Shown here: positions 19,416 through 44,474 of the stretch, piece after piece
Numbering within the stretch: the stretch's first letter is position 1
Layout of the letters: every line of letters begins with the position of its first letter
Assembly (NCBI RefSeq): GCF_013167455.1
Contig: NZ_CP038328.1
DNA length: 64,000 bases
Strand: one strand, 5' to 3'
Source of the DNA: Escherichia coli O157:H7
GTDB taxonomy: Bacteria; Pseudomonadota; Gammaproteobacteria; Enterobacterales; Enterobacteriaceae
Notes under the pieces: model-generated
What the model was told of the DNA's origin: nothing
Databases searched by the model: none
What the model saw: only the letters and a program-made list of their open reading frames with translations
Position numbers and translations under genes: made by a program

Positions 19416-20625
<1,210 letters not shown>

Positions 20626-20720
20626 GTTATGTGTTCTTTAAAAATAAGGAAATGTTTGAATTTAGTTGGTAGATTGTTGATGTGGAATAAATTTGTTTAA
20701 AAACAGATATGTATGCTTAG
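20626..20720 (+). promoter_or_regulatory. CRISPR leader (AT-rich)
   Basis: 95-bp AT-rich stretch between cas2 stop and first repeat. Confidence 0.7.
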
Positions 20721-20993
20721 TGTGTTCCCCGCGCCAGCGGGGATAAACCGTCACCAAAACAGTGACAAAAACTGTCACCAAAGTGTTCCCCGCGCCAGCG
20801 GGGATAAACCGCTCATATTCGGATTGATCGTGTGTTTCGGTTTGTGTTCCCCGCGCCAGCGGGGATAAACCGGCCCAGGGATTTGTTCAATCCAGCGTGC
20901 CGCTGTGTTCCCCGCATCAGCGGGGATAAACCGGGCGCACTGGATGCGATGATGGATATCACTTAGAATTCCCCGCCCCTGCGGTAGAACACC
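20721..20993 (+). CRISPR. Type I-E CRISPR array: 4 full 29-bp repeats, four 32-bp spacers, degenerate terminal repeat
   Basis: Repeat GTGTTCCCCGCGCCAGCGGGGATAAACCG at 20721, 20782, 20843; variant at 20904 (GCATCA loop); degenerate copy 20965..20993. Confidence 0.95.
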
Positions 20994-21014
20994 CAGCTCC
21001 CATTTTCCAACCCA

Positions 21015-22052
21015 TCAAGACGCCTTCGCCAACTCCTTCACCAGCGGTAGCATTATCCGCATAACGTCACGGCAGCGACGTTCTATTCTTCCAGGAAGTG
21101 CTTTATCAATATGTTGCTGATTATCCAGTCTTACGTCATGCCAGCTATTTCCCGCAGGGAATGCGGCTGTTTTTGCGCGTTGCTGATAACCATCTTTATT
21201 CCCAAGATTCCAGTTTGTCGCTTCCACCGAAAGTACAGCAATGCCCGCTTTGTCGAATATTTCTGCGTCATTACAACATCCAGTGCCTTTCGGATAATTT
21301 TTATTCAAACCCGGATTGGTCGTTGCGGCAATTCCATGACTACGCGCAATTGCCAGCGCCCTGTCGCGCGTTAATTTCCTTACTGCTTCAGGGGTTTTTA
21401 CACCGCTGTTGAAATACAATTTATCGCCAACAATTAAGTTATCGAGATTAATCACCAGCAGCGTATTTTTCTTTTCGGTGTCACTCATCCGCTTGAGTAA
21501 ATTCTCAGCGCCTAATTTCCCTTCCTCTTCTCCACTGGTCGCCACAAATCGAATACCATACTCGGTAGGCGTATTTTTCAGGCGTTCTGCCAGTTCCAGC
21601 ATGACACCTAAACCTGCGGCGTTATCATCCATTCCTTGTAACGTCAGCCCGCCGAGATTGGCATCTGCATCTGCGTCGCTCTGCGGGGCATAGGTATCCA
21701 GATGCGCCATAATAATGATCTGCTGCGGCGCTTTGCCTTCATGAGCGGCAATCACCGTACTTCCCGTCACGTTGTGCCAGTTTTTGCGGTTATCGCGGGC
21801 GGTATAAATATATCGGCTATTAAACGTACGAATATCACTGCGGTAACCCATTTGCTGAAACTGTTGCCGAATATAATCGGCAGATAACATTTCTGCGGGT
21901 GTTCCGGTCATTCGTCCCGGAAAGAAAGTGGCAATATGTCGCGCCTGTGTATTGGCAAAATCGCCAGGTTTAGGTGACGAGGCGTGTACGGGGAGAATAA
22001 AGCATACGCCGAGCGCCAGGGCAGCGGTACGGTGGCGCAATGCGGAAAACAT
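21015..22052 (-). CDS. iap: alkaline phosphatase isozyme conversion aminopeptidase
   Basis: 345-aa ORF with signal peptide; position between CRISPR and cysD. Confidence 0.85.
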   Translation of the reverse strand: MFSALRHRTAALALGVCFILPVHASSPKPGDFANTQARHIATFFPGRMTGTPAEMLSADYIRQQFQQMGYRSDIRTFNSRYIYTARDNRKNWHNVTGSTVIAAHEGKAPQQIIIMAHLDTYAPQSDADADANLGGLTLQGMDDNAAGLGVMLELAERLKNTPTEYGIRFVATSGEEEGKLGAENLLKRMSDTEKKNTLLVINLDNLIVGDKLYFNSGVKTPEAVRKLTRDRALAIARSHGIAATTNPGLNKNYPKGTGCCNDAEIFDKAGIAVLSVEATNWNLGNKDGYQQRAKTAAFPAGNSWHDVRLDNQQHIDKALPGRIERRCRDVMRIMLPLVKELAKAS

Positions 22053-22303
22053 AGTGAGTCCTTAAATACCATGCAAATTTTTTTACCGCCATAGTATGAA
22101 ACTGCCGCTGCGCTAAAACAATTTCAAATCTTCCTAAACGCCCGAAATCCGGTGCCTTAAGCACTTTTTGATATTAGCTTTGCCAAATCGTTATTCCGTT
22201 AAGGAACTACTCATTCTAATTGGTAATTTCATTCGTTCTCTTACGCTCCCTATAGTCGAAACATCTGATGGCAAGAAAATAGCGGTATTGCAAAGGAACG
22301 GTT

Positions 22304-23212
22304 ATGGATCAAATACGACTTACTCACCTGCGGCAACTGGAGGCGGAAAGCATCCACATTATTCGCGAGGTGGCGGCAGAATTCTCAAATCCGGTGATGC
22401 TCTACTCTATCGGTAAAGATTCCAGCGTCATGCTGCATCTGGCGCGCAAGGCGTTTTATCCAGGTACGCTGCCTTTCCCGTTGCTGCATGTCGATACCGG
22501 CTGGAAATTCCGTGAGATGTATGAGTTCCGCGATCGTACGGCGAAAGCCTACGGCTGCGAGCTGCTGGTGCATCAAAACCCGGAAGGCGTGGCGATGGGG
22601 ATTAATCCATTCGTGCACGGCAGCGCGAAACATACCGATATTATGAAGACCGAAGGCCTGAAGCAGGCGCTGAATAAATACGGTTTTGATGCCGCCTTCG
22701 GTGGTGCGCGCCGCGACGAAGAGAAATCCCGTGCTAAAGAGCGTATCTACTCTTTCCGTGATCGCTTCCATCGCTGGGACCCGAAAAATCAGCGCCCGGA
22801 GCTGTGGCACAACTATAACGGGCAGATTAACAAAGGCGAAAGCATCCGCGTTTTCCCGCTCTCTAACTGGACCGAGCAGGATATCTGGCAATACATCTGG
22901 CTGGAAAATATCGACATTGTGCCGCTGTATCTCGCTGCGGAACGTCCGGTTCTGGAACGCGACGGTATGTTGATGATGATTGATGACAACCGTATCGACC
23001 TGCAACCGGGCGAAGTGATTAAAAAACGGATGGTGCGTTTCCGTACGCTGGGCTGCTGGCCGCTGACCGGTGCGGTGGAGTCAAATGCACAAACGCTGCC
23101 GGAGATCATCGAAGAGATGCTGGTTTCCACCACCAGTGAACGTCAGGGGCGCGTGATTGACCGCGACCAAGCTGGTTCTATGGAGCTGAAAAAACGTCAG
23201 GGGTATTTTTAA
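22304..23212 (+). CDS. cysD: sulfate adenylyltransferase subunit 2
   Basis: 302-aa ORF. Confidence 0.95.
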
Positions 23213-23213
23213 G

Positions 23214-24641
23214 ATGAACACCGCACTTGCACAACAAATCGCCAATGAAGGCGGCGTCGAAGCCTGGATGATTGCGCAACAACATAAAAGCCTGCTGCGT
23301 TTTCTGACCTGTGGTAGCGTCGATGACGGCAAAAGTACCCTGATTGGTCGTCTGTTGCACGATACCCGCCAAATCTATGAAGATCAGCTCTCATCGCTGC
23401 ATAATGACAGTAAGCGTCACGGCACCCAGGGCGAAAAGCTGGATCTGGCTCTGCTGGTGGACGGCCTGCAAGCTGAGCGTGAACAGGGCATCACCATTGA
23501 CGTGGCCTACCGCTATTTCTCTACCGAGAAGCGTAAATTTATTATCGCCGACACTCCAGGGCACGAGCAGTACACCCGCAATATGGCGACTGGCGCATCG
23601 ACATGTGAACTGGCGATCTTACTGATCGATGCCCGTAAAGGCGTGCTCGATCAAACCCGTCGTCACAGTTTTATCTCCACACTGTTGGGGATCAAACATC
23701 TGGTCGTGGCGATCAACAAAATGGATCTGGTGGATTACAGTGAAGAGACGTTCACCCGTATTCGTGAAGATTATCTGACCTTTGCCGGGCAGCTGCCGGG
23801 TAATCTGGATATCCGCTTTGTGCCGCTCTCCGCACTGGAAGGTGACAACGTGGCTTCGCAAAGTGAAAGTATGCCGTGGTACAGCGGTCCGACACTGCTC
23901 GAAGTGCTGGAAACCGTGGAGATTCAGCGAGTGGTGGATGCCCAGCCAATGCGCTTCCCGGTGCAGTACGTTAACCGCCCAAATCTCGATTTTCGTGGCT
24001 ACGCCGGAACGCTGGCATCCGGTCGCGTGGAAGTCGGGCAACGTGTAAAAGTGCTGCCCTCTGGTGTGGAATCAAACGTCGCGCGGATCGTGACTTTTGA
24101 TGGTGATCGCGAAGAAGCCTTTGCCGGAGAAGCTATCACCCTGGTGCTGACGGATGAGATCGACATCAGCCGTGGCGATCTGCTGCTGGCGGCAGACGAA
24201 GCGTTACCAGCTGTGCAGAGCGCGTCGGTGGATGTGGTATGGATGGCGGAACAGCCGCTTTCCCCGGGCCAGAGTTACGACATCAAAATTGCCGGTAAGA
24301 AGACGCGTTCTCGTGTTGATGGCATTCGTTATCAGGTTGATATTAATAACCTTACCCAACGCGAAGTTGAAAACCTGCCGCTGAACGGCATCGGCCTGGT
24401 GGATCTCACTTTTGACGAGCCACTGGTGTTAGATCGTTATCAGCAAAACCCGGTTACCGGTGGGCTGATTTTTATCGATCGCCTGAGCAATGTGACCGTA
24501 GGTGCCGGTATGGTGCATGAGCCAGTTAGCCAGGCAACTGCTGCGCCATCTGAATTTAGTGCATTCGAACTGGAATTGAATGCCCTGGTTCGCCGCCACT
24601 TTCCACACTGGGGCGCGCGCGATTTGCTGGGGGAGAAATAA
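23214..24641 (+). CDS. cysN: sulfate adenylyltransferase subunit 1 (GTPase)
   Basis: 475-aa ORF; GTP-binding motifs ([18 protein letters not shown]). Confidence 0.95.
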
Positions 24642-25246
24642 TGGCGCTGCATGACGAAAACGTCGTCTGGCATAGCCATCCGGTCACTGTGCAACAACGC
24701 GAGCTACACCACGGTCATCGTGGTGTAGTGCTGTGGTTTACCGGCCTCTCCGGGTCCGGTAAATCAACGGTCGCCGGGGCGCTGGAGGAGGCGTTACATA
24801 AACTCGGCGTCAGTACGTATCTGCTGGATGGCGACAATGTTCGCCACGGATTATGCAGCGATCTCGGTTTTAGCGATGCCGATCGTAAAGAGAATATCCG
24901 TCGCGTCGGTGAAGTGGCGAATTTGATGGTTGAAGCCGGACTGGTGGTGCTGACCGCATTTATCTCGCCACACCGCGCCGAACGCCAGATGGTTCGCGAA
25001 CGCGTAGGAGAAGGGCGCTTTATCGAAGTGTTTGTCGATACGCCGCTGGCGATTTGCGAAGCCCGCGATCCAAAAGGCTTATATAAGAAAGCGCGTGCCG
25101 GTGAACTGCGCAACTTTACGGGAATAGATTCCGTTTACGAAGCGCCTGAATCGGCAGAAATTCATCTCAATGGTGAACAATTAGTAACAAATTTGGTACA
25201 GCAATTATTAGATCTGTTGAGACAGAACGATATTATCAGATCCTGA
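24641..25246 (+). CDS. cysC: adenylylsulfate kinase
   Basis: 201-aa ORF; P-loop GLSGSGKST. Confidence 0.95.
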
Positions 25247-25295
25247 GACACCACCGGGTTTCCATGCCCGGTTCGTCAAAGTAACAGGATCAAAT

Positions 25296-25619
25296 ATGCG
25301 TAATAGCCATAACATTACACTAACAAATAACGACAGCCTTACTGAGGATGAAGAAACCACATGGTCACTGCCTGGTGCCGTGGTCGGTTTTATCTCCTGG
25401 TTATTTGCGCTGGCGATGCCGATGTTGATTTATGGCTCTAACACGCTGTTCTTCTTTATCTACACCTGGCCTTTCTTTCTGGCGCTGATGCCCGTTGCGG
25501 TAGTGGTGGGGATTGCGCTGCATTCATTGATGGACGGAAAGCTACGCTACAGTATTGTTTTCACCCTGATGACAGTAGGCATTATGTTTGGCGCACTGTT
25601 TATGTGGCTACTGGGCTAA
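25296..25619 (+). CDS. ygbE: small inner-membrane protein
   Basis: 107-aa hydrophobic ORF; synteny. Confidence 0.7.
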   Translation: MRNSHNITLTNNDSLTEDEETTWSLPGAVVGFISWLFALAMPMLIYGSNTLFFFIYTWPFFLALMPVAVVVGIALHSLMDGKLRYSIVFTLMTVGIMFGALFMWLLG

Positions 25620-25812
25620 TTTGTACTTTCTTGTCTCCTCTGTTCATAATTCAAACCGTAACTAATAATGAGATTATGTTCTGCACGCCCTGGGTATACG
25701 TAACAATGGACAAATGTGGTACATTTGCCCGCGTTGTCGCGGTATCCCCAACAGAGGATGTAGAGTCGTCTTCGGATGCATGGGATGATGATGCCGTTTT
25801 TCAGGGGGCAGG

Positions 25813-26124
25813 ATGGGTAAACTAACGCTGCTGTTGCTGGCTATTCTGGTCTGGCTACAGTATTCGCTGTGGTTCGGTAAGAACGGTATACATGACTATA
25901 CCCGCGTCAATGATGATGTGGCGGCACAGCAAGCTACAAACGCGAAACTTAAAGCGCGAAACGATCAACTTTTTGCCGAAATTGACGATCTCAATGGCGG
26001 CCAGGAGGCGCTCGAAGAGCGTGCGCGTAATGAACTCAGCATGACCAGGCCGGGCGAAACTTTTTATCGTCTGGTGCCTGACGCGTCGAAGCGCGCACAG
26101 TCTGCGGGGCAAAACAATCGATAA
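25813..26124 (+). CDS. ftsB: cell division protein FtsB
   Basis: 103-aa ORF, N-terminal TM then coiled coil. Confidence 0.9.
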
Positions 26125-26142
26125 ATCAGCCCGGGAATTAAC

Positions 26143-26853
26143 ATGGCAACCACTCATTTGGATGTTTGCGCCGTGGTTCCGGCGGCCGGATTTGGCCGTC
26201 GAATGCAAACGGAATGTCCTAAGCAATATCTCTCAATCGGTAATCAAACCATTCTTGAACACTCGGTGTATGCGCTGCTGGCGCATCCCCGGGTGAAACG
26301 TGTCGTCATTGCCATAAGTCCTGGCGATAGCCGTTTTGCACAACTTCCTCTGGCGAATCATCCGCAAATCACCGTTGTAGATGGCGGTGATGAGCGTGCC
26401 GATTCCGTGCTGGCAGGTTTGAAAGCCGCTGGCGACGCGCAGTGGGTATTGGTGCATGACGCCGCTCGTCCTTGTCTGCATCAGGATGACCTCGCGCGAT
26501 TGTTGGCGTTGAGCGAAACCAGCCGCACGGGAGGGATCCTAGCCGCACCAGTGCGCGATACTATGAAACGTGCCGAACCGGGCAAAAATGCCATTGCTCA
26601 TACCGTTGATCGCAACGGCTTATGGCACGCGCTGACGCCGCAATTTTTCCCTCGTGAGCTGTTACATGACTGTCTGACGCGCGCTCTAAATGAAGGCGCG
26701 GCTATTACCGACGAAGCCTCGGCGCTGGAATATTGCGGATTCCATCCTCAGTTGGTCGAAGGCCGTGCGGATAACATTAAAGTCACGCGCCCGGAGGATT
26801 TGGCACTGGCCGAGTTTTACCTCACCCGAACCATCCATCAGGAGAATACATAA
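26143..26853 (+). CDS. ispD: 2-C-methyl-D-erythritol 4-phosphate cytidylyltransferase
   Basis: 236-aa ORF. Confidence 0.9.
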
Positions 26854-27332
26854 TGCGAATTGGACACGGTTTTGACGTACACGCCTTTGGCGGTGAAGGC
26901 CCAATTATCATTGGTGGCGTACGCATTCCTTACGAAAAAGGATTGCTGGCGCATTCTGATGGCGACGTGGCGCTCCATGCGTTGACCGATGCATTGCTTG
27001 GCGCGGCGGCGCTGGGGGATATCGGCAAACTGTTCCCGGATACCGATCCGGCATTTAAAGGTGCCGATAGCCGCGAGCTGCTACGCGAAGCCTGGCGTCG
27101 TATTCAGGCGAAGGGTTATACCCTTGGCAACGTCGATGTCACTATCATCGCTCAGGCACCGAAGATGTTGCCGCACATTCCACAAATGCGCGTGTTTATT
27201 GCCGAAGATCTCGGCTGCCATATGGATGATGTTAACGTGAAAGCCACTACTACGGAAAAACTTGGATTTACCGGACGTGGGGAAGGGATTGCCTGTGAAG
27301 CGGTGGCGCTACTCATTAAGGCAACAAAATGA
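26853..27332 (+). CDS. ispF: 2-C-methyl-D-erythritol 2,4-cyclodiphosphate synthase
   Basis: 159-aa ORF overlapping ispD stop. Confidence 0.95.
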
Positions 27333-28358
27333 TTGAGTTTGATAATCTCACTTACCTCCACGGTAAACCGCAAGGCACCGGGCTGCTGAAAGCCAATCCG
27401 GAAGACTTTGTGGTGGTGGAAGATTTGGGCTTTGAGCCTGATGGTGAAGGTGAGCATATTCTGGTTAGAATCCTCAAAAACGGCTGCAATACCCGTTTTG
27501 TGGCGGATGCACTGGCGAAATTCCTGAAAATTCATGCCCGTGAAGTCAGCTTTGCTGGGCAAAAAGACAAACATGCTGTTACAGAACAGTGGTTATGCGC
27601 TCGCGTGCCGGGCAAGGAAATGCCCGATCTGAGCGCCTTTCAATTGGAAGGCTGCCAGGTGCTGGAGTATGCGCGGCACAAGCGCAAGCTGCGTTTAGGG
27701 GCGCTGAAAGGTAACGCCTTTACCCTGGTTCTGCGCGAAGTGAGCAATCGCGATGACGTTGAACAACGTCTGATCGATATTTGCGTAAAAGGTGTACCGA
27801 ACTACTTCGGTGCCCAACGTTTTGGGATTGGCGGTAGCAACTTGCAGGGCGCGCTGCGCTGGGCGCAAACCAATACTCCGGTGCGCGATCGCAATAAACG
27901 GAGTTTTTGGTTGTCGGCAGCCCGCAGTGCGTTGTTTAATCAGATTGTTGCTGAGCGCCTCAAAAAAGCAGACGTTAATCAAGTTGTTGACGGCGATGCG
28001 CTACAATTAGCCGGACGTGGTAGCTGGTTTGTTGCAACCACCGAAGAACTGGTGGAATTACAGCGTCGCGTCAACGATAAAGAGCTGATGATAACCGCCG
28101 CATTGCCGGGCAGTGGTGAATGGGGAACTCAGCGTGAAGCGCTGGCATTCGAACAGGCAGCTGTCGCCGCAGAAACTGAATTACAAGCTTTACTGGTGCG
28201 CGAAAAAGTTGAAGCCGCGCGCAGAGCGATGCTGCTGTATCCGCAACAATTAAGCTGGAATTGGTGGGATGACGTCACCGTAGAAATCCGTTTCTGGCTT
28301 CCGGCGGGTAGTTTTGCAACCAGCGTTGTCAGGGAACTTATCAACACAACAGGTGATT

Positions 28359-28378
<20 letters not shown>
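27329..28378 (+). CDS. truD: tRNA pseudouridine13 synthase
   Basis: 349-aa ORF. Confidence 0.9.
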
Positions 28379-29740
<1,362 letters not shown>

Positions 29741-29879
29741 AACGTGAGGAAATACCTGGATTTTTCCTGGTTATTTTGCCGCAGGTCAGCGTATCGTGAA
29801 CATCTTTTCCAGTGTTCAGTATGGTGCCTTGCACGGTAATTATGTCACTGGTTATTAACCAATTTTTCCTGGGGGATAA

Positions 29880-31019
29880 ATGAGCGCGGGAAGCCCAAAA
29901 TTCACCGTTCGCCGCATTGCGGCTTTGTCACTGGTTTCGCTATGGCTGGCAGGCTGTTCTGACACTTCAAATCCACCGGCACCGGTCAGCTCCGTTAATG
30001 GCAATGCGCCTGCACATACCAATTCTGGTATGTTGATTACGCCGCCGCCGAAAATGGGGACGACGTCTACAGCGCAGCAACCGCAAATTCAGCCGGTGCA
30101 GCAGCCACAAATTCAGGCTACTCAACAACCGCAAATCCAGCCAGTGCAGCCAGTAGCTCAGCAGCCGGTACAGATGGAAAACGGACGCATCGTCTATAAC
30201 CGTCAGTATGGGAACATTCCGAAAGGCAGTTATAGCGGCAGTACCTATACCGTGAAAAAAGGCGACACGCTTTTCTATATCGCCTGGATTACTGGCAACG
30301 ATTTCCGTGACCTTGCTCAGCGCAACAATATTCAGGCACCATACGCGCTGAACGTCGGTCAGACCTTACAGGTGGGTAATGCTTCCGGTACGCCAATCAC
30401 TGGCGGAAATGCCATTACCCAGGCCGACGCAGCAGAGCAAGGAGTTGTGATCAAGCCTGCACAAAATTCCACCGTTGCTGTTGCGTCGCAACCGACAATT
30501 ACGTATTCTGAGTCTTCGGGTGAACAGAGTGCTAACAAAATGTTGCCGAACAACAAGCCAACTGCGACCACGGTCACAGCGCCTGTAACGGTACCAACAG
30601 CAAGCACAACCGAGCCGACTGTCAGCAGTACATCAACCAGTACGCCTATCTCCACCTGGCGCTGGCCGACTGAGGGCAAAGTGATCGAAACCTTTGGCGC
30701 TTCTGAGGGGGGCAACAAGGGGATTGATATCGCAGGCAGCAAAGGACAGGCAATTATCGCGACCGCAGATGGCCGTGTTGTTTATGCCGGTAACGCGCTG
30801 CGCGGCTACGGTAATCTGATTATCATCAAACATAATGATGATTACCTGAGTGCCTACGCCCATAACGACACAATGCTGGTCCGGGAACAACAAGAAGTGA
30901 AGGCGGGGCAAAAAATAGCAACCATGGGTAGCACCGGAACCAGTTCAACACGCTTGCATTTTGAAATTCGTTACAAGGGGAAATCCGTAAACCCGCTGCG
31001 TTATTTGCCGCAGCGATAA
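29880..31019 (+). CDS. nlpD: lipoprotein NlpD (LysM, degenerate M23 peptidase)
   Basis: 379-aa ORF; lipobox LAGCS; PQIQ repeat tract. Confidence 0.9.
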
Positions 31020-31081
31020 ATCGGCGGAACCAGGCTTTTGCTTGAATGTTCCGTCAAGGGATCACGGGTAGGAGCCACCTT

Positions 31082-32074
31082 ATGAGTCAGAATACGCTGA
31101 AAGTTCATGATTTAAATGAAGATGCGGAATTTGATGAGAACGGAGTTGAGGTTTTTGACGAAAAGGCCTTAGTAGAAGAGGAACCCAGTGATAACGATTT
31201 GGCCGAAGAGGAACTGTTATCGCAGGGAGCCACACAGCGTGTGTTGGACGCGACTCAGCTTTACCTTGGTGAGATTGGTTATTCACCACTGTTAACGGCC
31301 GAAGAAGAAGTTTATTTTGCGCGTCGCGCACTGCGTGGAGATGTCGCCTCTCGCCGCCGGATGATCGAGAGTAACTTGCGTCTGGTGGTAAAAATTGCCC
31401 GCCGTTATGGCAATCGTGGTCTGGCGTTGCTGGACCTTATCGAAGAGGGCAACCTGGGGCTGATCCGTGCGGTAGAGAAGTTTGACCCGGAACGTGGTTT
31501 CCGCTTCTCAACATACGCAACCTGGTGGATTCGCCAGACGATTGAACGGGCGATTATGAACCAAACCCGTACTATTCGTTTGCCGATTCACATCGTAAAG
31601 GAGCTGAACGTTTACCTGCGAACAGCACGTGAGTTGTCCCATAAGCTGGACCATGAACCAAGTGCGGAAGAGATCGCAGAGCAACTGGATAAGCCAGTTG
31701 ATGACGTCAGCCGTATGCTTCGTCTTAACGAGCGCATTACCTCGGTAGACACCCCGCTGGGTGGTGATTCCGAAAAAGCGTTGCTGGACATCCTGGCCGA
31801 TGAAAAAGAGAACGGTCCGGAAGATACCACGCAAGATGACGATATGAAGCAGAGCATCGTCAAATGGCTGTTCGAGCTGAACGCCAAACAGCGTGAAGTA
31901 CTGGCACGTCGATTCGGTTTGCTGGGGTACGAAGCGGCAACACTGGAAGATGTAGGTCGTGAAATTGGCCTCACCCGTGAACGTGTTCGCCAGATTCAGG
32001 TTGAAGGCCTGCGCCGTTTGCGCGAAATCCTGCAAACGCAGGGGCTGAATATCGAAGCGCTGTTCCGCGAGTAA
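31082..32074 (+). CDS. rpoS: RNA polymerase sigma factor RpoS (sigma38)
   Basis: ORF 31046..32074; ATG 31082 ([14 protein letters not shown]) giving 330 aa; codon 33 GAG. Confidence 0.95.
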
Positions 32075-32090
32075 GTAAGCATCTGTCAGA

Positions 32091-32126
32091 AAGGCCAGTC
32101 TCAAGCGAGGCTGGCCTTTTTCTTTT
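32091..32126 (+). terminator. rho-independent terminator of rpoS
   Basis: aaaggccagtctcaagcgaggctggcc stem then TTTTTCTTTT. Confidence 0.85.
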
Positions 32127-32193
32127 GTTTGGGAAGCTTGTGTTTTTGTCGCCTGGATAAGACACGTCAGCGTCCTACCCGGCAATTTGCATC

Positions 32194-32634
32194 CTATGTG
32201 TTCATCATCTTGCGCACCAGCTGCACAAACAGCTCCTGCTCTTCTGCACTCAAACGCCCCAAAAATTCCTCATCCACGCTGTCACCAATCGGTATCGCCG
32301 CAGCAAGTATCTTTTCTCCTTCGGCAGTCAGCCAGACAAAGCGACGCCGCTTGTCAGCGGCATCATGTTCACGTCTGACTAAGCCACGATTCTCCATTCT
32401 TGCCAACATTTCTGCCAACGTTGCTTTGGTGCTGACTGCTGCTTCTATCAGTGCCACCTGTTCGATACCAGGCTTATCAGCAATGGCGCGCATCACCGCA
32501 TACTGTGGTTTGGTCAGGTCAGGTAACTCGTGCTGCCAGCGAGCCGTGTGCTGCTGAAAAAGCTGTCGTAACTGATGGAACGCTTTATTTCGTAACGTCA
32601 TGTAAACTCCGGGCAAACTATCTGCCGCTATCAT
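32194..32634 (-). CDS. MarR/SlyA-family transcriptional regulator
   Basis: 146-aa ORF (alternative start at 32601); winged-helix-type sequence; divergent from decarboxylase genes. Confidence 0.75.
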   Translation of the reverse strand: MIAADSLPGVYMTLRNKAFHQLRQLFQQHTARWQHELPDLTKPQYAVMRAIADKPGIEQVALIEAAVSTKATLAEMLARMENRGLVRREHDAADKRRRFVWLTAEGEKILAAAIPIGDSVDEEFLGRLSAEEQELFVQLVRKMMNT

Positions 32635-32717
32635 AGCGGTTTTTCAGTGACGAAGGGGATGTTGTTACTTTTCAGTGCTTGCCGCAATGAGAACAGAGGC
32701 GTATTTTAATAATAATG

Positions 32718-32731
32718 TTCGTATACGAACA
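32718..32731. promoter_or_regulatory. perfect 14-bp palindrome GTTCGTATACGAAC, candidate operator of the MarR-like regulator
   Basis: Self-complementary 14-mer 17 bp upstream of ATG 32748, in the divergent promoter region. Confidence 0.5.
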
Positions 32732-32747
32732 ATTAAGAGAGTAAGCA

Positions 32748-33341
32748 ATGAAACTGATCGTCGGGATGACAGGGGCTACCGGTGCGCCTCTTGGTGTGGC
32801 ATTACTGCAAGCGCTGCGGGAGATGCCGAATGTCGAGACTCATCTGGTGATGTCGAAGTGGGCGAAAACCACCATTGAACTGGAAACGCCTTACAGCGCC
32901 CGCGATGTTGCTGCCCTCGCTGACTTCAGCCATAACCCGGCGGATCAGGCGGCGACCATCTCCTCAGGTTCCTTTCGTACAGACGGCATGATCGTTATTC
33001 CGTGCAGTATGAAAACGCTCGCCGGTATCCGCGCTGGTTACGCTGATGGCCTGGTAGGGCGCGCGGCGGACGTCGTGCTTAAAGAAGGCCGCAAACTGGT
33101 GCTGGTGCCGCGTGAAATGCCGCTTAGCACCATCCATCTCGAAAATATGCTCGCACTTTCACGCATGGGCGTGGCGATGGTGCCGCCGATGCCTGCCTTT
33201 TATAACCATCCCGAAACGGTAGATGACATTGTCCACCACGTGGTAGCCCGCGTGCTGGATCAATTTGGCCTTGAACATCCCTACGCCAGGCGCTGGCAAG
33301 GATTGCCGCAGGCCCGGAATTTTTCTCAGGAGAATGAATAA
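32748..33341 (+). CDS. UbiX-type flavin prenyltransferase (Pad1-like)
   Basis: 197-aa ORF; MKLIVGMTGATGA N-terminus. Confidence 0.85.
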   Translation: MKLIVGMTGATGAPLGVALLQALREMPNVETHLVMSKWAKTTIELETPYSARDVAALADFSHNPADQAATISSGSFRTDGMIVIPCSMKTLAGIRAGYADGLVGRAADVVLKEGRKLVLVPREMPLSTIHLENMLALSRMGVAMVPPMPAFYNHPETVDDIVHHVVARVLDQFGLEHPYARRWQGLPQARNFSQENE

Positions 33342-34768
33342 TGGCATTTGATGATTTACGCAGCTTTTTACAGGCGCTTGATGACCACGGCCAGTTACTG
33401 AAAATCAGCGAAGAGGTGAACGCGGAACCGGATCTGGCTGCCGCTGCCAACGCCACCGGGCGTATCGGCGATGGTGCACCGGCGCTGTGGTTTGATAATA
33501 TTCGCGGTTTTACCGATGCCCGCGTGGCGATGAATACCATCGGTTCCTGGCAGAACCACGCGATTTCCTTGGGCCTGCCGCCAAACACCCCGGTTAAAAA
33601 ACAGATTGATGAGTTTATCCGCCGCTGGGATAACTTCCCGATCGCCCCGGAGCGCCGCGCCAATCCAGCCTGGGCGCAGAACACCGTCGATGGTGACGAG
33701 ATTAATCTGTTCGATATCCTGCCGCTGTTTCGTTTAAACGACGGTGATGGCGGTTTCTATCTCGACAAAGCGTGCGTGGTTTCCCGCGATCCGCTCGACC
33801 CGGATAACTTCGGCAAGCAGAACGTCGGTATCTACCGCATGGAAGTGAAGGGCAAGCGTAAGCTCGGCCTGCAACCGGTGCCGATGCACGATATCGCCCT
33901 GCATCTGCATAAAGCGGAAGAGCGCGGTGAAGATCTGCCGATTGCCATCACCCTGGGTAACGATCCGATCATCACCCTTATGGGCGCCACGCCGCTGAAA
34001 TACGATCAGTCTGAGTATGAAATGGCAGGCGCGCTGCGCGAAAGCCCGTACCCGATCGCCACCGCGCCATTGACTGGTTTTGATGTGCCGTGGGGTTCAG
34101 AAGTGATCCTCGAAGGGGTTATCGAAAGCCGCAAACGCGAAATCGAAGGGCCGTTCGGTGAGTTTACCGGGCACTACTCCGGCGGGCGTAACATGACCGT
34201 GGTGCGTATCGATAAAGTCTCTTACCGCACCAGGCCGATTTTCGAATCGCTGTACCTCGGCATGCCGTGGACCGAAATCGACTACCTGATGGGGCCAGCC
34301 ACCTGTGTGCCGCTGTATCAACAACTGAAAGCCGAGTTCCCGGAAGTGCAGGCGGTAAACGCCATGTACACCCACGGCCTGCTGGCGATTATCTCCACCA
34401 AAAAACGCTACGGCGGCTTTGCCCGCGCGGTGGGCCTGCGTGCGATGACCACGCCGCACGGTCTGGGCTACGTAAAGATGGTGATTATGGTCGATGAAGA
34501 CGTTGACCCGTTCAACCTGCCGCAGGTGATGTGGGCGCTCTCCTCGAAAGTAAATCCGGCAGGGGATTTGGTGCAGTTGCCGAATATGTCCGTGCTGGAA
34601 CTCGACCCTGGCTCAAGCCCGGCGGGGATCACCGACAAGCTGATTATCGACGCCACCACGCCTGTCGCCCCGGACAACCGTGGTCACTACAGCCAGCCGG
34701 TGGTGGATTTGCCGGAAACCAAAGCCTGGGCTGAAAAACTGACCGCTATGCTGGCCGCACGTAAATAA
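33341..34768 (+). CDS. UbiD-family (prFMN-dependent) decarboxylase, phenolic acid decarboxylase C-subunit-like
   Basis: 475-aa ORF overlapping UbiX-like stop. Confidence 0.85.
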   Translation: MAFDDLRSFLQALDDHGQLLKISEEVNAEPDLAAAANATGRIGDGAPALWFDNIRGFTDARVAMNTIGSWQNHAISLGLPPNTPVKKQIDEFIRRWDNFPIAPERRANPAWAQNTVDGDEINLFDILPLFRLNDGDGGFYLDKACVVSRDPLDPDNFGKQNVGIYRMEVKGKRKLGLQPVPMHDIALHLHKAEERGEDLPIAITLGNDPIITLMGATPLKYDQSEYEMAGALRESPYPIATAPLTGFDVPWGSEVILEGVIESRKREIEGPFGEFTGHYSGGRNMTVVRIDKVSYRTRPIFESLYLGMPWTEIDYLMGPATCVPLYQQLKAEFPEVQAVNAMYTHGLLAIISTKKRYGGFARAVGLRAMTTPHGLGYVKMVIMVDEDVDPFNLPQVMWALSSKVNPAGDLVQLPNMSVLELDPGSSPAGITDKLIIDATTPVAPDNRGHYSQPVVDLPETKAWAEKLTAMLAARK

Positions 34769-34778
34769 GGAGAACAAG

Positions 34779-35015
34779 ATGATTTGTCCACGTTGTGCCG
34801 ATGAACAGATTGAAGTGATGGCGAAATCGCCGGTGAAAGATGTCTGGACGGTATATCAGTGCCAGCATTGCCTTTATACCTGGCGCGATACCGAACCGCT
34901 GCGCCGTACCAGCCGCGAACATTATCCCGAAGCGTTCCGCATGACGCAGAAAGATATTGATGACGCGCCAATGGTGCCGAGCATCCCGCCGCTGCTGGCG
35001 GAAGGTAAGCGCTAA
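34779..35015 (+). CDS. small zinc-ribbon subunit of phenolic acid decarboxylase (D-subunit-like)
   Basis: 78-aa ORF with CPRC...CQHC pairs directly after the UbiD-like gene. Confidence 0.7.
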   Translation: MICPRCADEQIEVMAKSPVKDVWTVYQCQHCLYTWRDTEPLRRTSREHYPEAFRMTQKDIDDAPMVPSIPPLLAEGKR

Positions 35016-35023
35016 TAAAAAGT

Positions 35024-35051
35024 GCCGGGTAGTGGCTTTGCTTTACCCGGC
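35024..35051. terminator. hairpin between convergent decarboxylase operon and pphB
   Basis: gccgggta...tacccggc stem with A/T-rich flanks. Confidence 0.5.
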
Positions 35052-35055
35052 CTCA

Positions 35056-35712
35056 TTACTTTATTTTATAAAATGACAGCCGCCCGCTTTTCGGCGATCC
35101 GGTATCAATATAAATCTGGTTAGCGAACGTCTGAATGTTATCAAACATCATATGTCCAAATATAAAATAATCAGCGCCGTTTATTTGTTGTAACTCGCCA
35201 TTAAGCGATTTCTGCACACGATCAACAGGCCAGAGTAATTCGCTCTCCGCTATTTCTTTACCAAAGAGATATTCACTCCCCGGATAATCTGCATGTGCGA
35301 TGACATATTTTATGTTGTCGTTAGTGATTTCAATAATATGTGGAAGGTGATGGAATTTCAGCAACAGATCTGTAGCTTCTTTTTGCTCTGAATCATTTAA
35401 ATCGAAAAACCAGTCACCACCGCTGGCAAGCCACATATTGCCATCGCCGGTCGCGAACGCATCCAGCGCCATTGCTTCGTGGTTGCCTTTAACGGAGATA
35501 AACCAGGGCTGGTTTAGCAGGCGCAGGACGTTAAGACTCTCCGGCCCACGATCAATATTATCGCCGACAGAAATAAGTAAGTCGGTTTCGGGGAAAAAAG
35601 AGAGTTGATGTAAGCGGGATTGTAATAACTGATATTCACCATGAATATCACCAACGACCCATATATGGCGATAGTGATGGGTATTGATTTTTTGATAGCG
35701 TGTAGATGGCAT
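35056..35712 (-). CDS. pphB: serine/threonine protein phosphatase 2
   Basis: 218-aa ORF; metallophosphatase motifs (GDIHG, GDNIDRG, GNHE). Confidence 0.85.
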   Translation of the reverse strand: MPSTRYQKINTHHYRHIWVVGDIHGEYQLLQSRLHQLSFFPETDLLISVGDNIDRGPESLNVLRLLNQPWFISVKGNHEAMALDAFATGDGNMWLASGGDWFFDLNDSEQKEATDLLLKFHHLPHIIEITNDNIKYVIAHADYPGSEYLFGKEIAESELLWPVDRVQKSLNGELQQINGADYFIFGHMMFDNIQTFANQIYIDTGSPKSGRLSFYKIK

Positions 35713-35817
35713 GGTTTTACCCTGTAAAATAAGCTTTCCTATTATACAGGGTATTTTTATTTGATTCGTCAGTTATCGTTAATATTCCCGATAGCAAAAG
35801 ACTATCGGGAATTATTA

Positions 35818-38379
35818 TTACACCAGACTCTTCAGGCGATAAATCCATTCCAGCGCCTGACGCGGGGTGAGTGAATCCGGATCGAGGTTTTCCAGTGCCT
35901 CGACTGCAGGCGAGGTTTCTTCCGGTACGGACAGCAAAGACATTTGCGTACCATCCACTTGCGTAGCGGCGGCGTTCGGCGAAATGCTTTCCAGCTCACG
36001 CAGTTTTTGCCGTGCGCGCTTAATAACCTCTTTTGGCACGCCGGCCAGAGCTGCAACCGCCAGGCCGTAGCTTTTGCTCGCCGCGCCATCCTGCACGCTA
36101 TGCATAAAGGCAATGGTGTCGCCGTGCTCCAGTGCATCGAGATGCACGTTGGCGACGCCTTCCATTTTCTCCGGTAACTGGGTCAGCTCGAAATAGTGGG
36201 TGGCAAACAGCGTCAACGCCTTAATCTTATTCGCCAGATTTTCCGCGCACGCCCACGCCAGCGACAGACCATCGTAAGTGGACGTTCCGCGCCCAATCTC
36301 ATCCATCAGCACCAGACTGTACTCGGTGGCGTTATGCAGAATATTAGCGGTTTCGGTCATCTCCACCATAAAGGTTGAACGCCCGGAAGCCAGATCATCC
36401 GCTGCCCCTACGCGGGTAAAGATACGGTCAATCGGGCCAATCTCGACTTTTTGCGCCGGTACGTAGCTGCCGATATAGGCCATCAGCGCAATCAGTGCGG
36501 TCTGGCGCATATAGGTACTTTTACCGCCCATGTTCGGACCGGTAATAATCAACATCCGGCGCTGCGGTGACAGATTCAGCGGGTTGGCGATAAATGGCTC
36601 GTTCAGCACCTGTTCAACCACCGGATGGCGGCCTTCGGTAATGCGAATGCCCGGTTTATCAATGAAGGTCGGGCAGGTGTAGTTCAGGGTATAGGCCCGT
36701 TCCGCCAGGTTCACCAGCACGTCGAGTTCCGCCAGCGCGCTCGCGCTCTGTTGCAACGCTTCCAGATGCGGCAACAGCAGGTCGAACAGCTCTTCATAAA
36801 GCTGTTTTTCCAGAGCCAGTGCTTTGCCTTTTGAAGTGAGGACTTTATCTTCGTACTCTTTTAGCTCTGGAATGATGTAGCGCTCGGCGTTTTTCAGCGT
36901 CTGGCGACGCATATAGTTGATAGGTGCCAGATGGCTTTGCCCACGGCTGATTTGAATGTAGTAGCCGTGCACCGCATTAAAGCCAACTTTTAGCGTGTCC
37001 AGGCCGGTACGTTCACGCTCGCGGACTTCCAGACGCTCCAGATAATCGGTCGCGCCGTCAGCCAGCGCGCGCCACTCATCCAGCTCTTCGTTATAGCCTG
37101 ATGCGATAACACCACCGTCGCGTACCAGCACCGGCGGTGTGTCGATGATTGCTCGCTCCAGCAGATCGCGCAGCTCGGCAAACTCGCCCATCTTCTCACG
37201 TAGCGCCTGTACTGGTGCACTATCAACAGTTTCTAACTGCGCACGCAGCTCCGGCAGTTGCTGGAAAGCGTGACGCATACGGGCCAGATCGCGTGGGCGA
37301 GCGGTACGCAACGCCAGACGCGCCAGAATACGTTCCAGGTCGCCGACCTGACGTAGTACCGGCTGCAACTCGGCGGTGAAATCCTGCAATGCGCCAATAG
37401 TTTGCTGGCGCTCAAGCAACACGCGGGTATCGCGCACTGGCATATGCAGCCAGCGTTTCAGCATACGGCTGCCCATCGGCGTGACGGTGCAGTCGAGCAC
37501 AGAAGCCAGCGTATTTTCCGCACCACCCGCCAGGTTCTGGGTGATTTCCAGATTACGACGCGTCGCGGCATCCATAATGATGCTGTCCTGCTCACGTTCC
37601 ATGGTGATGGAACGAATATGCGGCAGAGTCGTACGTTGGGTATCTTTCGCATACTGCAACAGACAACCGGCAGCACAAAGTCCGCGCGGCGCGTTCTCGA
37701 CGCCAAAACCGACCAGATCGCGGGTCCCAAATTGCAGATTCAACTGCTGGCGCGCGGTGTCGATTTCAAACTCCCACAGCGGGCGACGGCGCAGGCCGCG
37801 ACGGCCTTCAATTAACGACATTTCAGCAAAATCTTCTGCATACAGCAGTTCCGCAGGATTAGTGCGTTGCAGTTCTGCCGCCATCGTTTCCCGGTCAGCC
37901 GGTTCGCTCAGGCGAAAACGACCGGAACTGATATCCAGCGTCGCGTAGCCGAAACCTTTGCTGTCCTGCCAGATAGCCGCCAGCAGGTTGTCCTGACGCT
38001 CCTGCAACAGGGCTTCATCGCTGATGGTGCCTGGCGTAACGATACGCACAACTTTGCGCTCAACCGGACCTTTGCTGGTCGCCGGATCGCCAATTTGTTC
38101 GCAGATGGCAACGGACTCGCCCTGATTCACCAGTTTGGCGAGGTAGTTTTCCACCGCATGGTAGGGAATCCCCGCCATCGGGATCGGCTCTCCCGCCGAA
38201 GCACCGCGTTTGGTCAGTGAAATATCCAGCAGTTGCGACGCGCGTTTTGCGTCGTCATAAAACAGTTCATAAAAATCACCCATCCGGTAAAACAGCAGGA
38301 TCTCGGGATGCTGGGCTTTCAGCTTGAGATACTGCTGCATCATGGGCGTATGGGCGTCGAAATTTTCTATTGCACTCAT
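35818..38379 (-). CDS. mutS: DNA mismatch repair protein MutS
   Basis: 853-aa ORF; Walker [10 protein letters not shown]. Confidence 0.97.
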
Positions 38380-38619
38380 GGGGTTATGTCCGGTTCCCTG
38401 ATATTAAATGGGGTGTGATGGTTTTTATTTTCGTTGTAATCACATAAGGCGCACATGATACCGGAGTTAATCATTTCAGGGGAAGAAGCGAACGGCGAGT
38501 TCTTGATGCTGGTTCCGGGAAAGATGCTGTTTTGCAGCTTTTGCGTGATGCTTATGAAGCAAGTACGCAAAATTGTATCGGTTGGCTAACCCTTCTTCTT
38601 TAGAGTCATAGTGCCCTTT

Positions 38620-38648
38620 AAGATTAAGTTGTAATATAAATGCATCTT
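38620..38648. promoter_or_regulatory. candidate NsrR operator upstream of ygbA
   Basis: aagattaagttgtaatataaatgcatctt; right half AAATGCATCTT fits the NsrR half-site as recalled. Confidence 0.45.
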
Positions 38649-38665
38649 AATGAGGTGGAGGCAGT

Positions 38666-39019
38666 ATGTCCGGCAAGCGTATCTCTCGTGAAAAACTGAC
38701 GATTAAAAAAATGATCGATCTTTATCAAGCGAAATGCCCGCAGGCGTCAGCGGAGCCGGAGCATTACGAGGCGTTGTTTGTTTACGCGCAAAAGCGGCTG
38801 GATAAATGTGTGTTCGGCGAAGAGAAACCAGCCTGTAAGCAGTGTCCGGTGCACTGTTACCAGCCTGCAAAGCGTGAAGAGATGAAACAGATTATGCGTT
38901 GGGCCGGGCCGAGAATGCTGTGGCGTCATCCGATCTTAACCGTGCGTCATCTCATCGATGACAAGTGTCCGGTGCCAGAACTGCCGGAAAAATATCGTCC
39001 GAAAAAACCTCGTGAATAG
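38666..39019 (+). CDS. ygbA: YgbA (nitrosative-stress-associated small protein)
   Basis: 117-aa ORF with GAGGTGGAGG upstream; synteny. Confidence 0.8.
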   Translation: MSGKRISREKLTIKKMIDLYQAKCPQASAEPEHYEALFVYAQKRLDKCVFGEEKPACKQCPVHCYQPAKREEMKQIMRWAGPRMLWRHPILTVRHLIDDKCPVPELPEKYRPKKPRE

Positions 39020-39055
39020 TATGCCGGACAGGCAGATCTGTCCGGCAATTTGCAG

Positions 39056-41134
39056 TTAAATCAATGCCGATTTATCAATTCCCAGTCGCTTCATCCGTGA
39101 CAGCAGGGTCGTGCGTTTCAGCCCCAGACGTTGCGCAGCGCCTTTAGGCCCGGCAACCACGCCGTTAGTTTCTTTCAGCACGCGAACAATCAACTGATAT
39201 TCATCTTCGCCCTCCTGAGCGACAACCGTTGCGGCAGGCGGCGTTTCAGGCTCCGGTAAAGCAATATCTGGCAATGACAGCTGCAGCACGTTGCCGCGTG
39301 TTAGCAATACCGCGCGCTCAATGACGTTTTCCAGTTCGCGTACGTTACCCGGCCACTCCATATTGCTCAAGGTGCGCAACGTCTCGGCAGGAATGCTGTC
39401 GATATTGCGCCCCAGACGACGGGCAATTTTGAAGGTAAAGGCTTTCGCCAGCAGCGGAATATCTTCCGGACGCTCGCGTAGTGGCGGCAGGTGAATCGGG
39501 AATACGTTCAGGCGGTAATAGAGATCGCTACGGAACTCACGGTCGGCGACCATTTTTTTCAGATCGCGGTTAGTCGCGGCGATTAGACGCACGTCCGTCT
39601 GAATGATTTTGTTGCTGCCGAGGCGTTCAAACTCCTGTTCCTGCAATACACGCAGCAACTTCGGCTGTAACTCCAGTGGCATATCGCCCACTTCGTCGAG
39701 GAACAGGGAGCTTTTATCCGCCAGTTCAAAACGACCGATACGCTGGGCGCTGGCACCGGTAAAAGCCCCACGCTCATGACCAAACAGATCGCTCTCCAGC
39801 AATCCGGCAGGCATCGCCGCGCAGTTCATTTTGACCATGCGGCGATTATTACGCCCACTGAGATTATGGATAGCACGGGCAATCAGCTCTTTACCCGTGC
39901 CAGTTTCACCGAGGATCAGCACGGTACTGTCACTTTGCGCCACCATTTCAACTTGTTTAAGCACGCTGTACATGGCTTCGCTGCGGCCAATAATCTCGCC
40001 AAATTCACTATCAACATTGTTGAGCTGCTCGGTCAGGGCGAGGTTTTCATCAACCAGCCGTTCTTTCAGACGATGGATTTCCTGATAGGCGAGGGCGTTA
40101 TCGACAGCGATTGCCACACGTTCGGCAATCTGGCGCAGTAAATTCAGATTGGTAGTGGTAAACACTTTCTCTTCACATTGCGCCAGTTTCAGCACGCCCA
40201 GCATGGTGTCGCCAGACATCAGCGGTAACAGGCACAAGGTTTGAATCTGGTTGCCCCAGGTATCGAACAACATGCGTTCATAGGGGGCTAAATCATCCCG
40301 CTCGTGGAGATTAATCAGCAGCATCTCTTTACTTTTGAACACGCGTTCGGTGAGGGTTCCGGCTTCATCGACTTCGCTCTGTTCGTGGGCGGGATGCTGT
40401 TTATCAAGATAGTGAGTGGAGTAGATGTTGAGTTTGTTTTTACGGTGGCTGCGTAAGACGATACTGATATCGTCAATATCGAAATAGTAATGGATTTCTT
40501 TGGCGACTTCGCTGACCAGTTCGTCCATATCCAGGCGGGAAAGCACCGCGTTGGTGATGGCGACCAGGATGCGGAAGTTATCGCGTTCCCGGCATAACAA
40601 CTCATAGTCGACATTGTTAACGACGCGACTCTGGATTTGTTCGGTGACGACAGAAACGATCTGCGTAAATGTTTGCAGACGATTGAACTCTTTTTCGCTC
40701 CAGGGGCGATCGTCATAACGAATAAATTCACAGCCACCAAAAATATGCCCTTCCGCCGCCAGTGGCATCAGGCAATAGTGACCAAATTTTGGGTATAGCC
40801 CACCTGCGGCCAGCTGCGGCCAGGTTTCACAAAATTCTTCGTAACTGCAATGCAACGTATCAGGGCGCGACAAAATGCTGCGTACCGGACCGTGTGCCAG
40901 AACAGTTTCGTCTTCATATTTAATGGGGGTGTCTTTTTCACGCGATGCGTAATAAGACGCACGTTGAGTCTGCGCTTGCCACAACACAATAGCCGCGTTG
41001 TCGGCGAGCGCAGAACGCTTTACCAGTTGCGAAAGAGCCTCACACAGCGAGGCCAGATCGGGCTGCTGCAATAGTGTCCGAGTGATGTCGAACAACCCTT
41101 GCTGTCCGAGATCACTCATCGGTGTATATGACAT
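39056..41134 (-). CDS. fhlA: formate hydrogenlyase transcriptional activator (sigma54 EBP)
   Basis: ORF 39056..41170; start at MSYTPMSD giving 692 aa; GAF and AAA+ (GETGTGKE) domains. Confidence 0.9.
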   Translation of the reverse strand: MSYTPMSDLGQQGLFDITRTLLQQPDLASLCEALSQLVKRSALADNAAIVLWQAQTQRASYYASREKDTPIKYEDETVLAHGPVRSILSRPDTLHCSYEEFCETWPQLAAGGLYPKFGHYCLMPLAAEGHIFGGCEFIRYDDRPWSEKEFNRLQTFTQIVSVVTEQIQSRVVNNVDYELLCRERDNFRILVAITNAVLSRLDMDELVSEVAKEIHYYFDIDDISIVLRSHRKNKLNIYSTHYLDKQHPAHEQSEVDEAGTLTERVFKSKEMLLINLHERDDLAPYERMLFDTWGNQIQTLCLLPLMSGDTMLGVLKLAQCEEKVFTTTNLNLLRQIAERVAIAVDNALAYQEIHRLKERLVDENLALTEQLNNVDSEFGEIIGRSEAMYSVLKQVEMVAQSDSTVLILGETGTGKELIARAIHNLSGRNNRRMVKMNCAAMPAGLLESDLFGHERGAFTGASAQRIGRFELADKSSLFLDEVGDMPLELQPKLLRVLQEQEFERLGSNKIIQTDVRLIAATNRDLKKMVADREFRSDLYYRLNVFPIHLPPLRERPEDIPLLAKAFTFKIARRLGRNIDSIPAETLRTLSNMEWPGNVRELENVIERAVLLTRGNVLQLSLPDIALPEPETPPAATVVAQEGEDEYQLIVRVLKETNGVVAGPKGAAQRLGLKRTTLLSRMKRLGIDKSALI

Positions 41135-41207
41135 TTTGTTCTTCCAGGAAAGCACCGCAAAGCGGTGCAAAAGGTCATTGACTAACTATAGGAGATTTAG
41201 AATTTTA

Positions 41208-42218
41208 TTAGCATATACGCGGAAGCGGTTCGGCGTGTGGTAAATCGAGGGTTCGTTTCACGCCATACAGACCGGCAAGACGAACACCTTTACGTTCCAC
41301 CACTTCACCAATCAGCGCCGCGTCTTTCCCCAGTGGATGGGAATGTAACGCTGCCAGCACTTGCTCTGCCGCGTTGCGTTCAACGGCGATCACCAGTTTG
41401 CCTTCGTTGGCAAAGTTCAGGGCGTCCAGTCCCAGCAATTCGCAAACGCCGCGCACGGCAGGTTTAACCGGCAGCGCTGATTCAGAAATTTCAATACCGC
41501 AACCGCAGGCTGCCGCGAACTCATGAACCACCGCGTTTACACCACCACGGGTGGCATCACGCAGCGCTTTCACGCCGGGAATGTCACGCAGCGTCTGAAT
41601 AAGCGGCGTCAGCACCGCGCAGTCGCTGACCAGTTCGCCATCCAGCCCCAGCTGCTCACGCAGGTTAAGGATAGTCGCCCCGTGGTCGCCGAGTGTACCG
41701 CTAACCAGCAATATATCGCCTGCGGTTAGCGTCTGTGCGCCCCAGTGAATATTCGTCGGAATTGCGCCCATGCCCGCGGTGTTGATAAACAGTTTATCTG
41801 CCGCGCCGCGCTGCACCACTTTAGTATCGCCAGTAACGATGGCAATGCCTGCCGTGCGGGCGGTTTCTGCCATGCTGGTCACTACGGCTTTCAGTGTCTC
41901 CATCGGCAATCCTTCTTCGAGGATAAAGCCACAGGAGAGATAGCGCGGAATAGCGCCACTGACCGCAACGTCATTCGCGGTGCCGCAAATCGCCAGCTTG
42001 CCGATATTACCGCCAGGGAAGAACAGCGGGTCAATAACGTAACTGTCGGTGGAGAACGCCAGACGGTCGCCTTCCGCTACCAGCTGCGCCAGATCAAGAC
42101 GTGCCTGATCTTCCTGCTCTGCCAGCCACGGGTTGGCAAAGGCTTCCATAAACAGGCTGTTGATTAATTGCTGCATCGCCTGGCCGCCGCTACCGTGGGC
42201 GAGTTGGATATTATTCAC
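41208..42218 (-). CDS. hypE: hydrogenase maturation protein HypE
   Basis: 336-aa ORF. Confidence 0.9.
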   Translation of the reverse strand: MNNIQLAHGSGGQAMQQLINSLFMEAFANPWLAEQEDQARLDLAQLVAEGDRLAFSTDSYVIDPLFFPGGNIGKLAICGTANDVAVSGAIPRYLSCGFILEEGLPMETLKAVVTSMAETARTAGIAIVTGDTKVVQRGAADKLFINTAGMGAIPTNIHWGAQTLTAGDILLVSGTLGDHGATILNLREQLGLDGELVSDCAVLTPLIQTLRDIPGVKALRDATRGGVNAVVHEFAAACGCGIEISESALPVKPAVRGVCELLGLDALNFANEGKLVIAVERNAAEQVLAALHSHPLGKDAALIGEVVERKGVRLAGLYGVKRTLDLPHAEPLPRIC

Positions 42219-43336: not shown

Positions 43337-43608
43337 TATTTTTCCTCGCCATACAACAGCGCGCCGACATCCGGCTCAACGTCAAACATGTTTTGCAAGG
43401 CGTCGAGAGTGTCGCGTGCTTCGGCTTCATTAATTACGCTCATGGCAAAGCCAACGTGTACCAGTACCCACTGGCCCACGCGCGGCTGACCGTTTTCATC
43501 GCAGCTGCCGACTAACGTTAAATCGACATCGCGCTGAATGCCGCAGACGTCGACTTTCGCCTGGTTACCGTCAATGGTGCGGATCTGGCCGGGAACGCCT
43601 ATGCACAT
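43336..43608 (-). CDS. hypC: hydrogenase maturation chaperone HypC
   Basis: ORF 43336..43635; start at MCIGVPGQI giving 90 aa. Confidence 0.85.
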
Positions 43609-44471: not shown

Positions 44472-44474
44472 CGC

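Follow-up and report, generated by a model that had tools for sequence, protein, structure and literature searches.

We have examined rpoS and its surroundings in a stretch of 64,000 nucleotides from Escherichia coli O157:H7 (contig NZ_CP038328.1 of RefSeq assembly GCF_013167455.1), which as a whole we refer to as the window. Within the window rpoS lies directly after nlpD, its conserved position, and the gene order umpG (surE)-pcm-nlpD-rpoS is that of both MG1655 and Sakai. The features of the locus, from the promoter to the terminator, are as follows.

30481..30509, + strand: candidate main rpoS promoter inside nlpD (TTGCGT, 17 nt, TATTCT; hexamers read from the sequence, identical to K-12)
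30515..31081, + strand: leader (5' UTR) of the rpoS mRNA, inside and just after nlpD
30966..30985, + strand: leader segment ATTCGTTACAAGGGGAAATC at -116, complementary to DsrA (match to the reverse complement of DsrA nt 10-29)
31070..31074, + strand: Shine-Dalgarno sequence AGGAG, read in the sequence seven bases 5' of the rpoS ATG
31082..32074, + strand: rpoS coding sequence (330 codons and TAA, 993 nt; internal stop absent on translation)
31178..31180, + strand: rpoS codon 33, GAG (Glu), by direct reading
31241..31243, + strand: rpoS codon 54, GTG, a possible internal re-initiation point in K-12 amber-33 strains, with no role in the window allele
31247..31345, + strand: sigma-70 region 1.2, aa 56-88 (Pfam PF00140, E = 4.8e-12)
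31361..31570, + strand: sigma-70 region 2, aa 94-163 (Pfam PF04542, E = 3.5e-23), which contains I128
31598..31600, + strand: K173, residue present, the codon directly before region 3
31601..31825, + strand: sigma-70 region 3, aa 174-248 (Pfam PF04539, E = 2.6e-22)
31865..32026, + strand: sigma-70 region 4, aa 262-315 (Pfam PF04545, E = 5.7e-17)
32088..32131, + strand: intrinsic terminator of rpoS from a terminator scan (15-pair stem and T run)

A sequence-only reading of the window had described rpoS as a full-length gene of 330 amino acids with GAG at codon 33, and both statements are correct. The frame opens with the ATG at 31082 and closes with the TAA that ends at 32074, contains zero internal stops and occupies exactly the coordinates given for it, while codon 33 at 31178..31180 reads GAG (Glu) in the context GTA GAA GAG GAA CCC. 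RefSeq annotates the gene at 993 nt in both MG1655 and Sakai, in agreement with the start that yields 330 residues. We note that a further in-frame ATG at 31046, 36 nt 5' of the annotated start, extends the mechanical six-frame open reading frame to 342 residues. We rejected this longer frame because its ATG has no Shine-Dalgarno sequence and sits inside the leader, and because both reference annotations use the 330-residue start; ORF callers could mis-start rpoS here, given the ATG in 31046..31081.

The product is recognizable as RpoS by its family models. Regions 1.2, 2, 3 and 4 follow one another in order, each scoring over its Pfam gathering score, and the protein exceeds the cut-offs of both RpoS equivalogs (604.6 bits vs 394 for NCBIfam NF004207 and 480.7 bits vs 378.7 for TIGR02394), staying under the cut-off in every RpoD and RpoH model. 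The exact protein is found on at least 1,000 contigs, under the name 'MULTISPECIES: RNA polymerase sigma factor RpoS [Enterobacteriaceae]'. Individual residues of interest are in place: K173 is the residue that we take to be the RssB contact recognised for ClpXP degradation, and I128 is kept, the importance of residue 128 being the topic of an earlier study (PMC5405132). Nucleotide 721 of the gene is G in the window, and a TAA mutant at this nucleotide has been reported for the ATCC 700927 stock of EDL933 (PMC1852560). Codon 33 falls in an N-terminal segment that is markedly acidic (17 acidic vs 3 basic residues in aa 1-55). This segment precedes region 1.2, and residue 33 is outside every conserved sigma region and thus outside the protein's contact surfaces for core polymerase and promoter DNA. 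The σS chains of three solved RNA polymerase holoenzymes (5ipl, 6kj6 and 6omf) can be aligned with the window protein over the full 330 residues. Both 5ipl and 6omf carry E33, like the window protein, whereas 6kj6 carries Q33; the engineered changes S2G and R329L near the ends belong to 5ipl, and 6omf, which we take to be the Salmonella protein, differs from the window protein at residues 24 and 31.

Comparison with the K-12 alleles shows how little separates them from the gene in the window. The alignment with MG1655 rpoS is free of gaps and contains four base differences, at nt 97, 387, 543 and 819 (99.6% nucleotide identity). Only the first of these, G in the window and C in MG1655, alters the protein, so that codon 33 is GAG (Glu) in the window and CAG (Gln) in MG1655; the other three are synonymous, the window codons being CGT at 129 (nt 387), ACA at 181 (nt 543) and GTA at 273 (nt 819). 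The MG1655 gene (b2741, Q33) is thus of equal length, occupies the equal genomic position after nlpD and specifies a protein with 329 of its 330 residues identical. W3110, in contrast, has TAG at codon 33, and its gene is flagged in RefSeq as a pseudogene with an internal stop; its three synonymous differences from the window are those of MG1655. Alignment with these reference alleles, which had been put forward as one way to check the gene, brought to light no other inactivating change, MG1655 RpoS differing at residue 33 only. With CAG in MG1655 and TAG in W3110, and with the census described below, the statement that K-12 lineages carry one or the other of these codons is sound, and the GAG of the window is neither of the two codons that mark the K-12 type of allele. 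The match is no chance effect, since identity is 100% with rpoS of O157:H7 and 99.6% with rpoS of K-12.

The identity with O157:H7 extends over all 993 nt of the gene, and there are zero differences within it from either EDL933 or Sakai (ECs_3595). The combination of GAG33 with CGT129, ACA181 and GTA273 that characterizes the EDL933-type allele of O157:H7 is present in the window, and the same four-site pattern is given in the EDL933 row of Table 2 of Dong et al. 2009 (PMC2700278), a study in which every VTEC strain tested had GAG at codon 33, vs CAG in MG1655. The flanks agree: positions 20000..44000 of the window (24 kb) match many O157:H7 genomes at 100% identity, among them those of Sakai, 86-24 derivatives and ATCC 35150, and in Sakai, as in the window, nlpD is found upstream of rpoS and hosA-kpdBCD-pphB-mutS downstream. 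In MG1655 the rpoS terminator is followed instead by ygbN, whose sequence is unrelated to the hosA that follows it here. Some K-12 stocks are reported to carry GAG or TAT at codon 33 (PMC2700278), so codon 33 alone does not type a strain. It is the three O157-type synonymous changes together with the flanking island, and not codon 33, that settle the origin of the strain.

We also made several observations on the flanks themselves. Homology with K-12 ends at 32120, which is 46 nt past the rpoS stop and inside the terminator, and resumes at pphB. The intervening 2,935 bp (32121..35055) hold hosA, a MarR/SlyA-like gene on the - strand, and kpdB, kpdC and kpdD, for subunits of a hydroxyarylic acid decarboxylase, and they stand in place of about 6.1 kb (ygbI-ygbN) of K-12; we take this to be the known polymorphic rpoS-mutS region. 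Relative to Sakai, the first 7,183 bases of the window are 100% identical, and there are five single-base mismatches, at 15427, 48582, 56012 and 56039 and at one position between about 56783 and 61908, four of which lie within 7100..56900. These mismatches could help to place the strain within O157:H7. Sakai also differs from the window at norV, which is full length here (61522..62961, - strand; 479 aa, no internal stop, two residues off K-12); the Sakai gene is missing 204 bp, corresponding roughly to 61909..62112 of the window, and its annotated product has 411 aa. At norV, then, this O157:H7 strain does not resemble Sakai; the deletion is a known polymorphism linked to nitric oxide resistance.

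We next consider how codon 33 is distributed among E. coli. A 61-mer centred on the codon was searched in 5,426 complete E. coli genomes, 5,414 of which have the region, and genomes were counted at an identity of at least 99%, which at 61 nt means an exact match. The form with GAG was found in about 4,818 genomes out of these 5,414, that with CAG in about 173 of the 5,426 genomes and that with TAG in about 121 of the 5,426. All three counts are upper bounds, because the band at or above 99% may take in as many as four alignments for each query that are partial but 100% identical. Around 300 genomes have changes at other places in the 61-mer and so fall outside the three classes. The 60 CAG matches listed are K-12 stocks (MG1655, BW25113, MC4100, DH10B and others), their derivatives, or laboratory strains whose size and coordinates are K-12-like and thus consistent with that background. 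The 60 TAG matches listed are likewise K-12 stocks, derivatives or strains consistent with K-12, W3110, EMG2, WG1, J53, NCM3722, HMS174 and O16:H48 strains among them, with the addition of BLR(DE3) (NZ_CP020368.1), an expression strain of the B lineage. According to the BLR(DE3) genome paper, about 85 kb of K-12 DNA around recA was co-transferred with the recA deletion and brought in the amber-33 rpoS, and the census thus tracks K-12 DNA and not K-12 strains as such.

Beyond E. coli, RpoS has E33 in E. albertii and in Leclercia, which indicates that Glu33 (GAG) is the ancestral state, and there is an acidic residue in the equivalent stretch of Hafnia. The earlier description of GAG as the non-K-12 allele is thus supported by the roughly 4,818 of 5,414 genomes that have it, by its presence in these two relatives and by the agreement of PMC2700278. 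CAG (Gln) and TAG (amber) at codon 33 are peculiarities of the K-12 laboratory lineage. EMG2 and WG1, the earliest K-12 stocks, have TAG, in keeping with the published proposal of a laboratory origin of CAG by change of the amber codon.

The consequences of the two K-12 codons are expected to differ, the Glu/Gln exchange at residue 33 being mild and TAG truncating the normal product. MG1655 (Q33) is generally treated as rpoS+. For amber-33 strains, the BLR(DE3) genome paper reports lowered σS activity and, citing Subbarayan and Sarkar, a shorter RpoS translated from an internal secondary initiation region. It is possible that this internal initiation takes place at codon 54, since this codon is GTG and a start at residue 54 would yield 277 aa, the length of one 'partial' cluster member (an Enterobacter cloacae record) that begins there.

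The sequences that control rpoS also appear to be sound. We take the leader to be 567 nt long, and hence the start site to be at 30515. With this leader length, the hexamers TTGCGT and TATTCT and their identity to K-12 lead us to place the promoter inside nlpD; a generic sigma-70 promoter scan of 30400..32250 gave no site over threshold. In the 1,348 nt that precede the rpoS ATG, ten differences separate the window from K-12, and four of these lie in the leader, at 30776, 30788, 30899 and 30920 (-306, -294, -183 and -162). These four are synonymous changes in nlpD, whose product differs from that of K-12 by H46N only, and from -161 to -1 the leader matches K-12 exactly. This identical part includes ATTCGTTACAAGGGGAAATC, at which DsrA would pair and so open an inhibitory hairpin. 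At Rfam gathering thresholds, a scan of the entire window placed no family over the leader. Every sequence element of rpoS control within the window is present and either identical to K-12 or changed only synonymously in nlpD.

The explanation that best accounts for these observations is that the window carries the wild-type and probably functional rpoS of E. coli O157:H7, encoding the 330-residue sigma factor σS of stationary phase and the general stress response, with Glu33 as the ancestral residue common to most E. coli and related genera and CAG and TAG as K-12 laboratory peculiarities. We put the probability of this reading at about 95%; nothing in the window sequence argues against it. 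That the protein would be active we infer from its identity with an experimentally characterised allele. Drawing on established knowledge of the family, homology and the literature, we would expect σS to compete for core RNA polymerase, to bind it through regions 2-4 and to guide it to the promoters used under stress and in stationary phase. The amount of σS would be controlled at three points: by transcription from the promoter within nlpD; by translation, when Hfq-dependent small RNAs (DsrA, RprA and ArcZ) open the inhibitory hairpin of the long leader; and by degradation, with RssB delivering the protein to ClpXP through K173. None of this is a new finding: the allele, the way in which it differs from K-12 and how common it is among natural isolates have been in the literature since the early 2000s. 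The use of the observation is thus confined to annotation and strain typing, in that it marks the window as coming from a non-K-12 strain, specifically O157:H7. It also indicates an rpoS spared the loss-of-function mutations often acquired by laboratory stocks and some isolates, a point that bears on how a food-borne pathogen tolerates acid and oxidative stress.

It is conceivable, although we think it unlikely, that Glu33 and Gln33 are not equivalent, and that the negative charge which Glu33 adds to the acidic N-terminal tail alters the stability or turnover of σS, its handling by ClpXP or its activity. The first 55 residues are strongly acidic (17 acidic vs 3 basic), and a ClpX recognition element lies near the N-terminus of σS. 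Coldewey et al. (PMC1852560), citing Atlung et al., moreover describe strains with σS(33E) as having more variable rpoS phenotypes, and on this account the difference may not be fully neutral. Set against these points, residue 33 is outside every conserved sigma region, the stretch around it varies and is even gapped in more distant relatives (Sodalis and Hafnia), both variants have been used in RNA polymerase structures (E33 in 5ipl, Q33 in 6kj6), and MG1655 with its Q33 is generally counted as rpoS+. If the residue does matter, then MG1655, the standard 'wild type', would depart slightly from the natural E33 protein for which it serves as a reference and which about 89% of sequenced E. coli carry.

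A wild-type gene might also sit in a strain whose stress response is impaired, either through the changes in the leader or through lesions in regulators encoded elsewhere (rssB, hfq, dsrA, rprA, arcZ, crl or the ira genes). The sequence-only reading had taken the allele as support for an intact general stress response, and this stands, with one reservation: the gene is intact and the capacity for the response is supported, but an intact gene is necessary and not sufficient. None of the regulator genes of rpoS is found within the window, and as regulators such as rssB, hfq, the small RNAs and crl are encoded outside it, an intact rpoS speaks for the capacity for a general stress response and not for its presence. 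An impaired response could be argued from the four leader substitutions relative to K-12 (-306, -294, -183 and -162), and also from the variation in rpoS-related phenotypes known across EHEC isolates and even from one EDL933 stock to another (PMC1852560). The four substitutions, however, are synonymous in nlpD and lie upstream of the inhibitory hairpin as well as of the pairing site for small RNAs, and the surrounding 24 kb are 100% identical in many O157:H7 genomes, 86-24 derivatives and Sakai among them. Furthermore, EDL933, with an identical rpoS coding allele, shows RpoS-dependent catalase: HPII catalase is lost in its rpoS-null and Suc++ derivatives (PMC2700278). In the same study N99-4390 alone among the VTEC strains was low in catalase activity, which argues that EDL933, carrying the window allele, is not impaired. 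We therefore regard an impaired response as very improbable.

Finally, a derivation of the GAG codon by secondary reversion of an amber codon, in a window that came from a relative of K-12, could appeal to the Glu (GAG) codon reported in some K-12 strains (PMC2700278) and to GAG, CAG and TAT each being one base change from TAG, but is refuted by the flanking sequence and has next to no chance of being correct, as rpoS in the window has three O157-specific synonymous changes, its flanks are 100% identical to O157:H7 and, further downstream, the 2.9-kb hosA-kpdBCD segment stands where K-12 has ygbI-ygbN.

Other loci in the window also deserve mention. The sole Rfam match in the window is to the sok antitoxin RNA (RF01794, 105 bits, E = 7e-23). 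This RNA and a small open reading frame of the Hok/Gef family, the start of which it overlaps, lie at 11582..11738 and 11723..11875, both on the + strand. The frame is annotated in Sakai as ECs_3616 and sits between cysH and cas3; together they are a chromosomal toxin-antitoxin locus of the hok/sok type. A complete type I-E set of cas genes (cas3, casABCDE, cas1 and cas2) precedes a short CRISPR array located at 20722..21013, between cas2 and iap. This array has 29-nt repeats (GTGTTCCCCGCGCCAGCGGGGATAAACCG) that recur every 61 nt, those at its ends being degenerate, and of its four spacers the first (TCACCAAAACAGTGACAAAAACTGTCACCAAA) is internally repetitive. Near the start of the window, ygcS (an MFS sugar transporter) and ygcQ (a flavoprotein), at about 1097..2505 and 3259..4119 on the + strand, are pseudogenes in the Sakai record.
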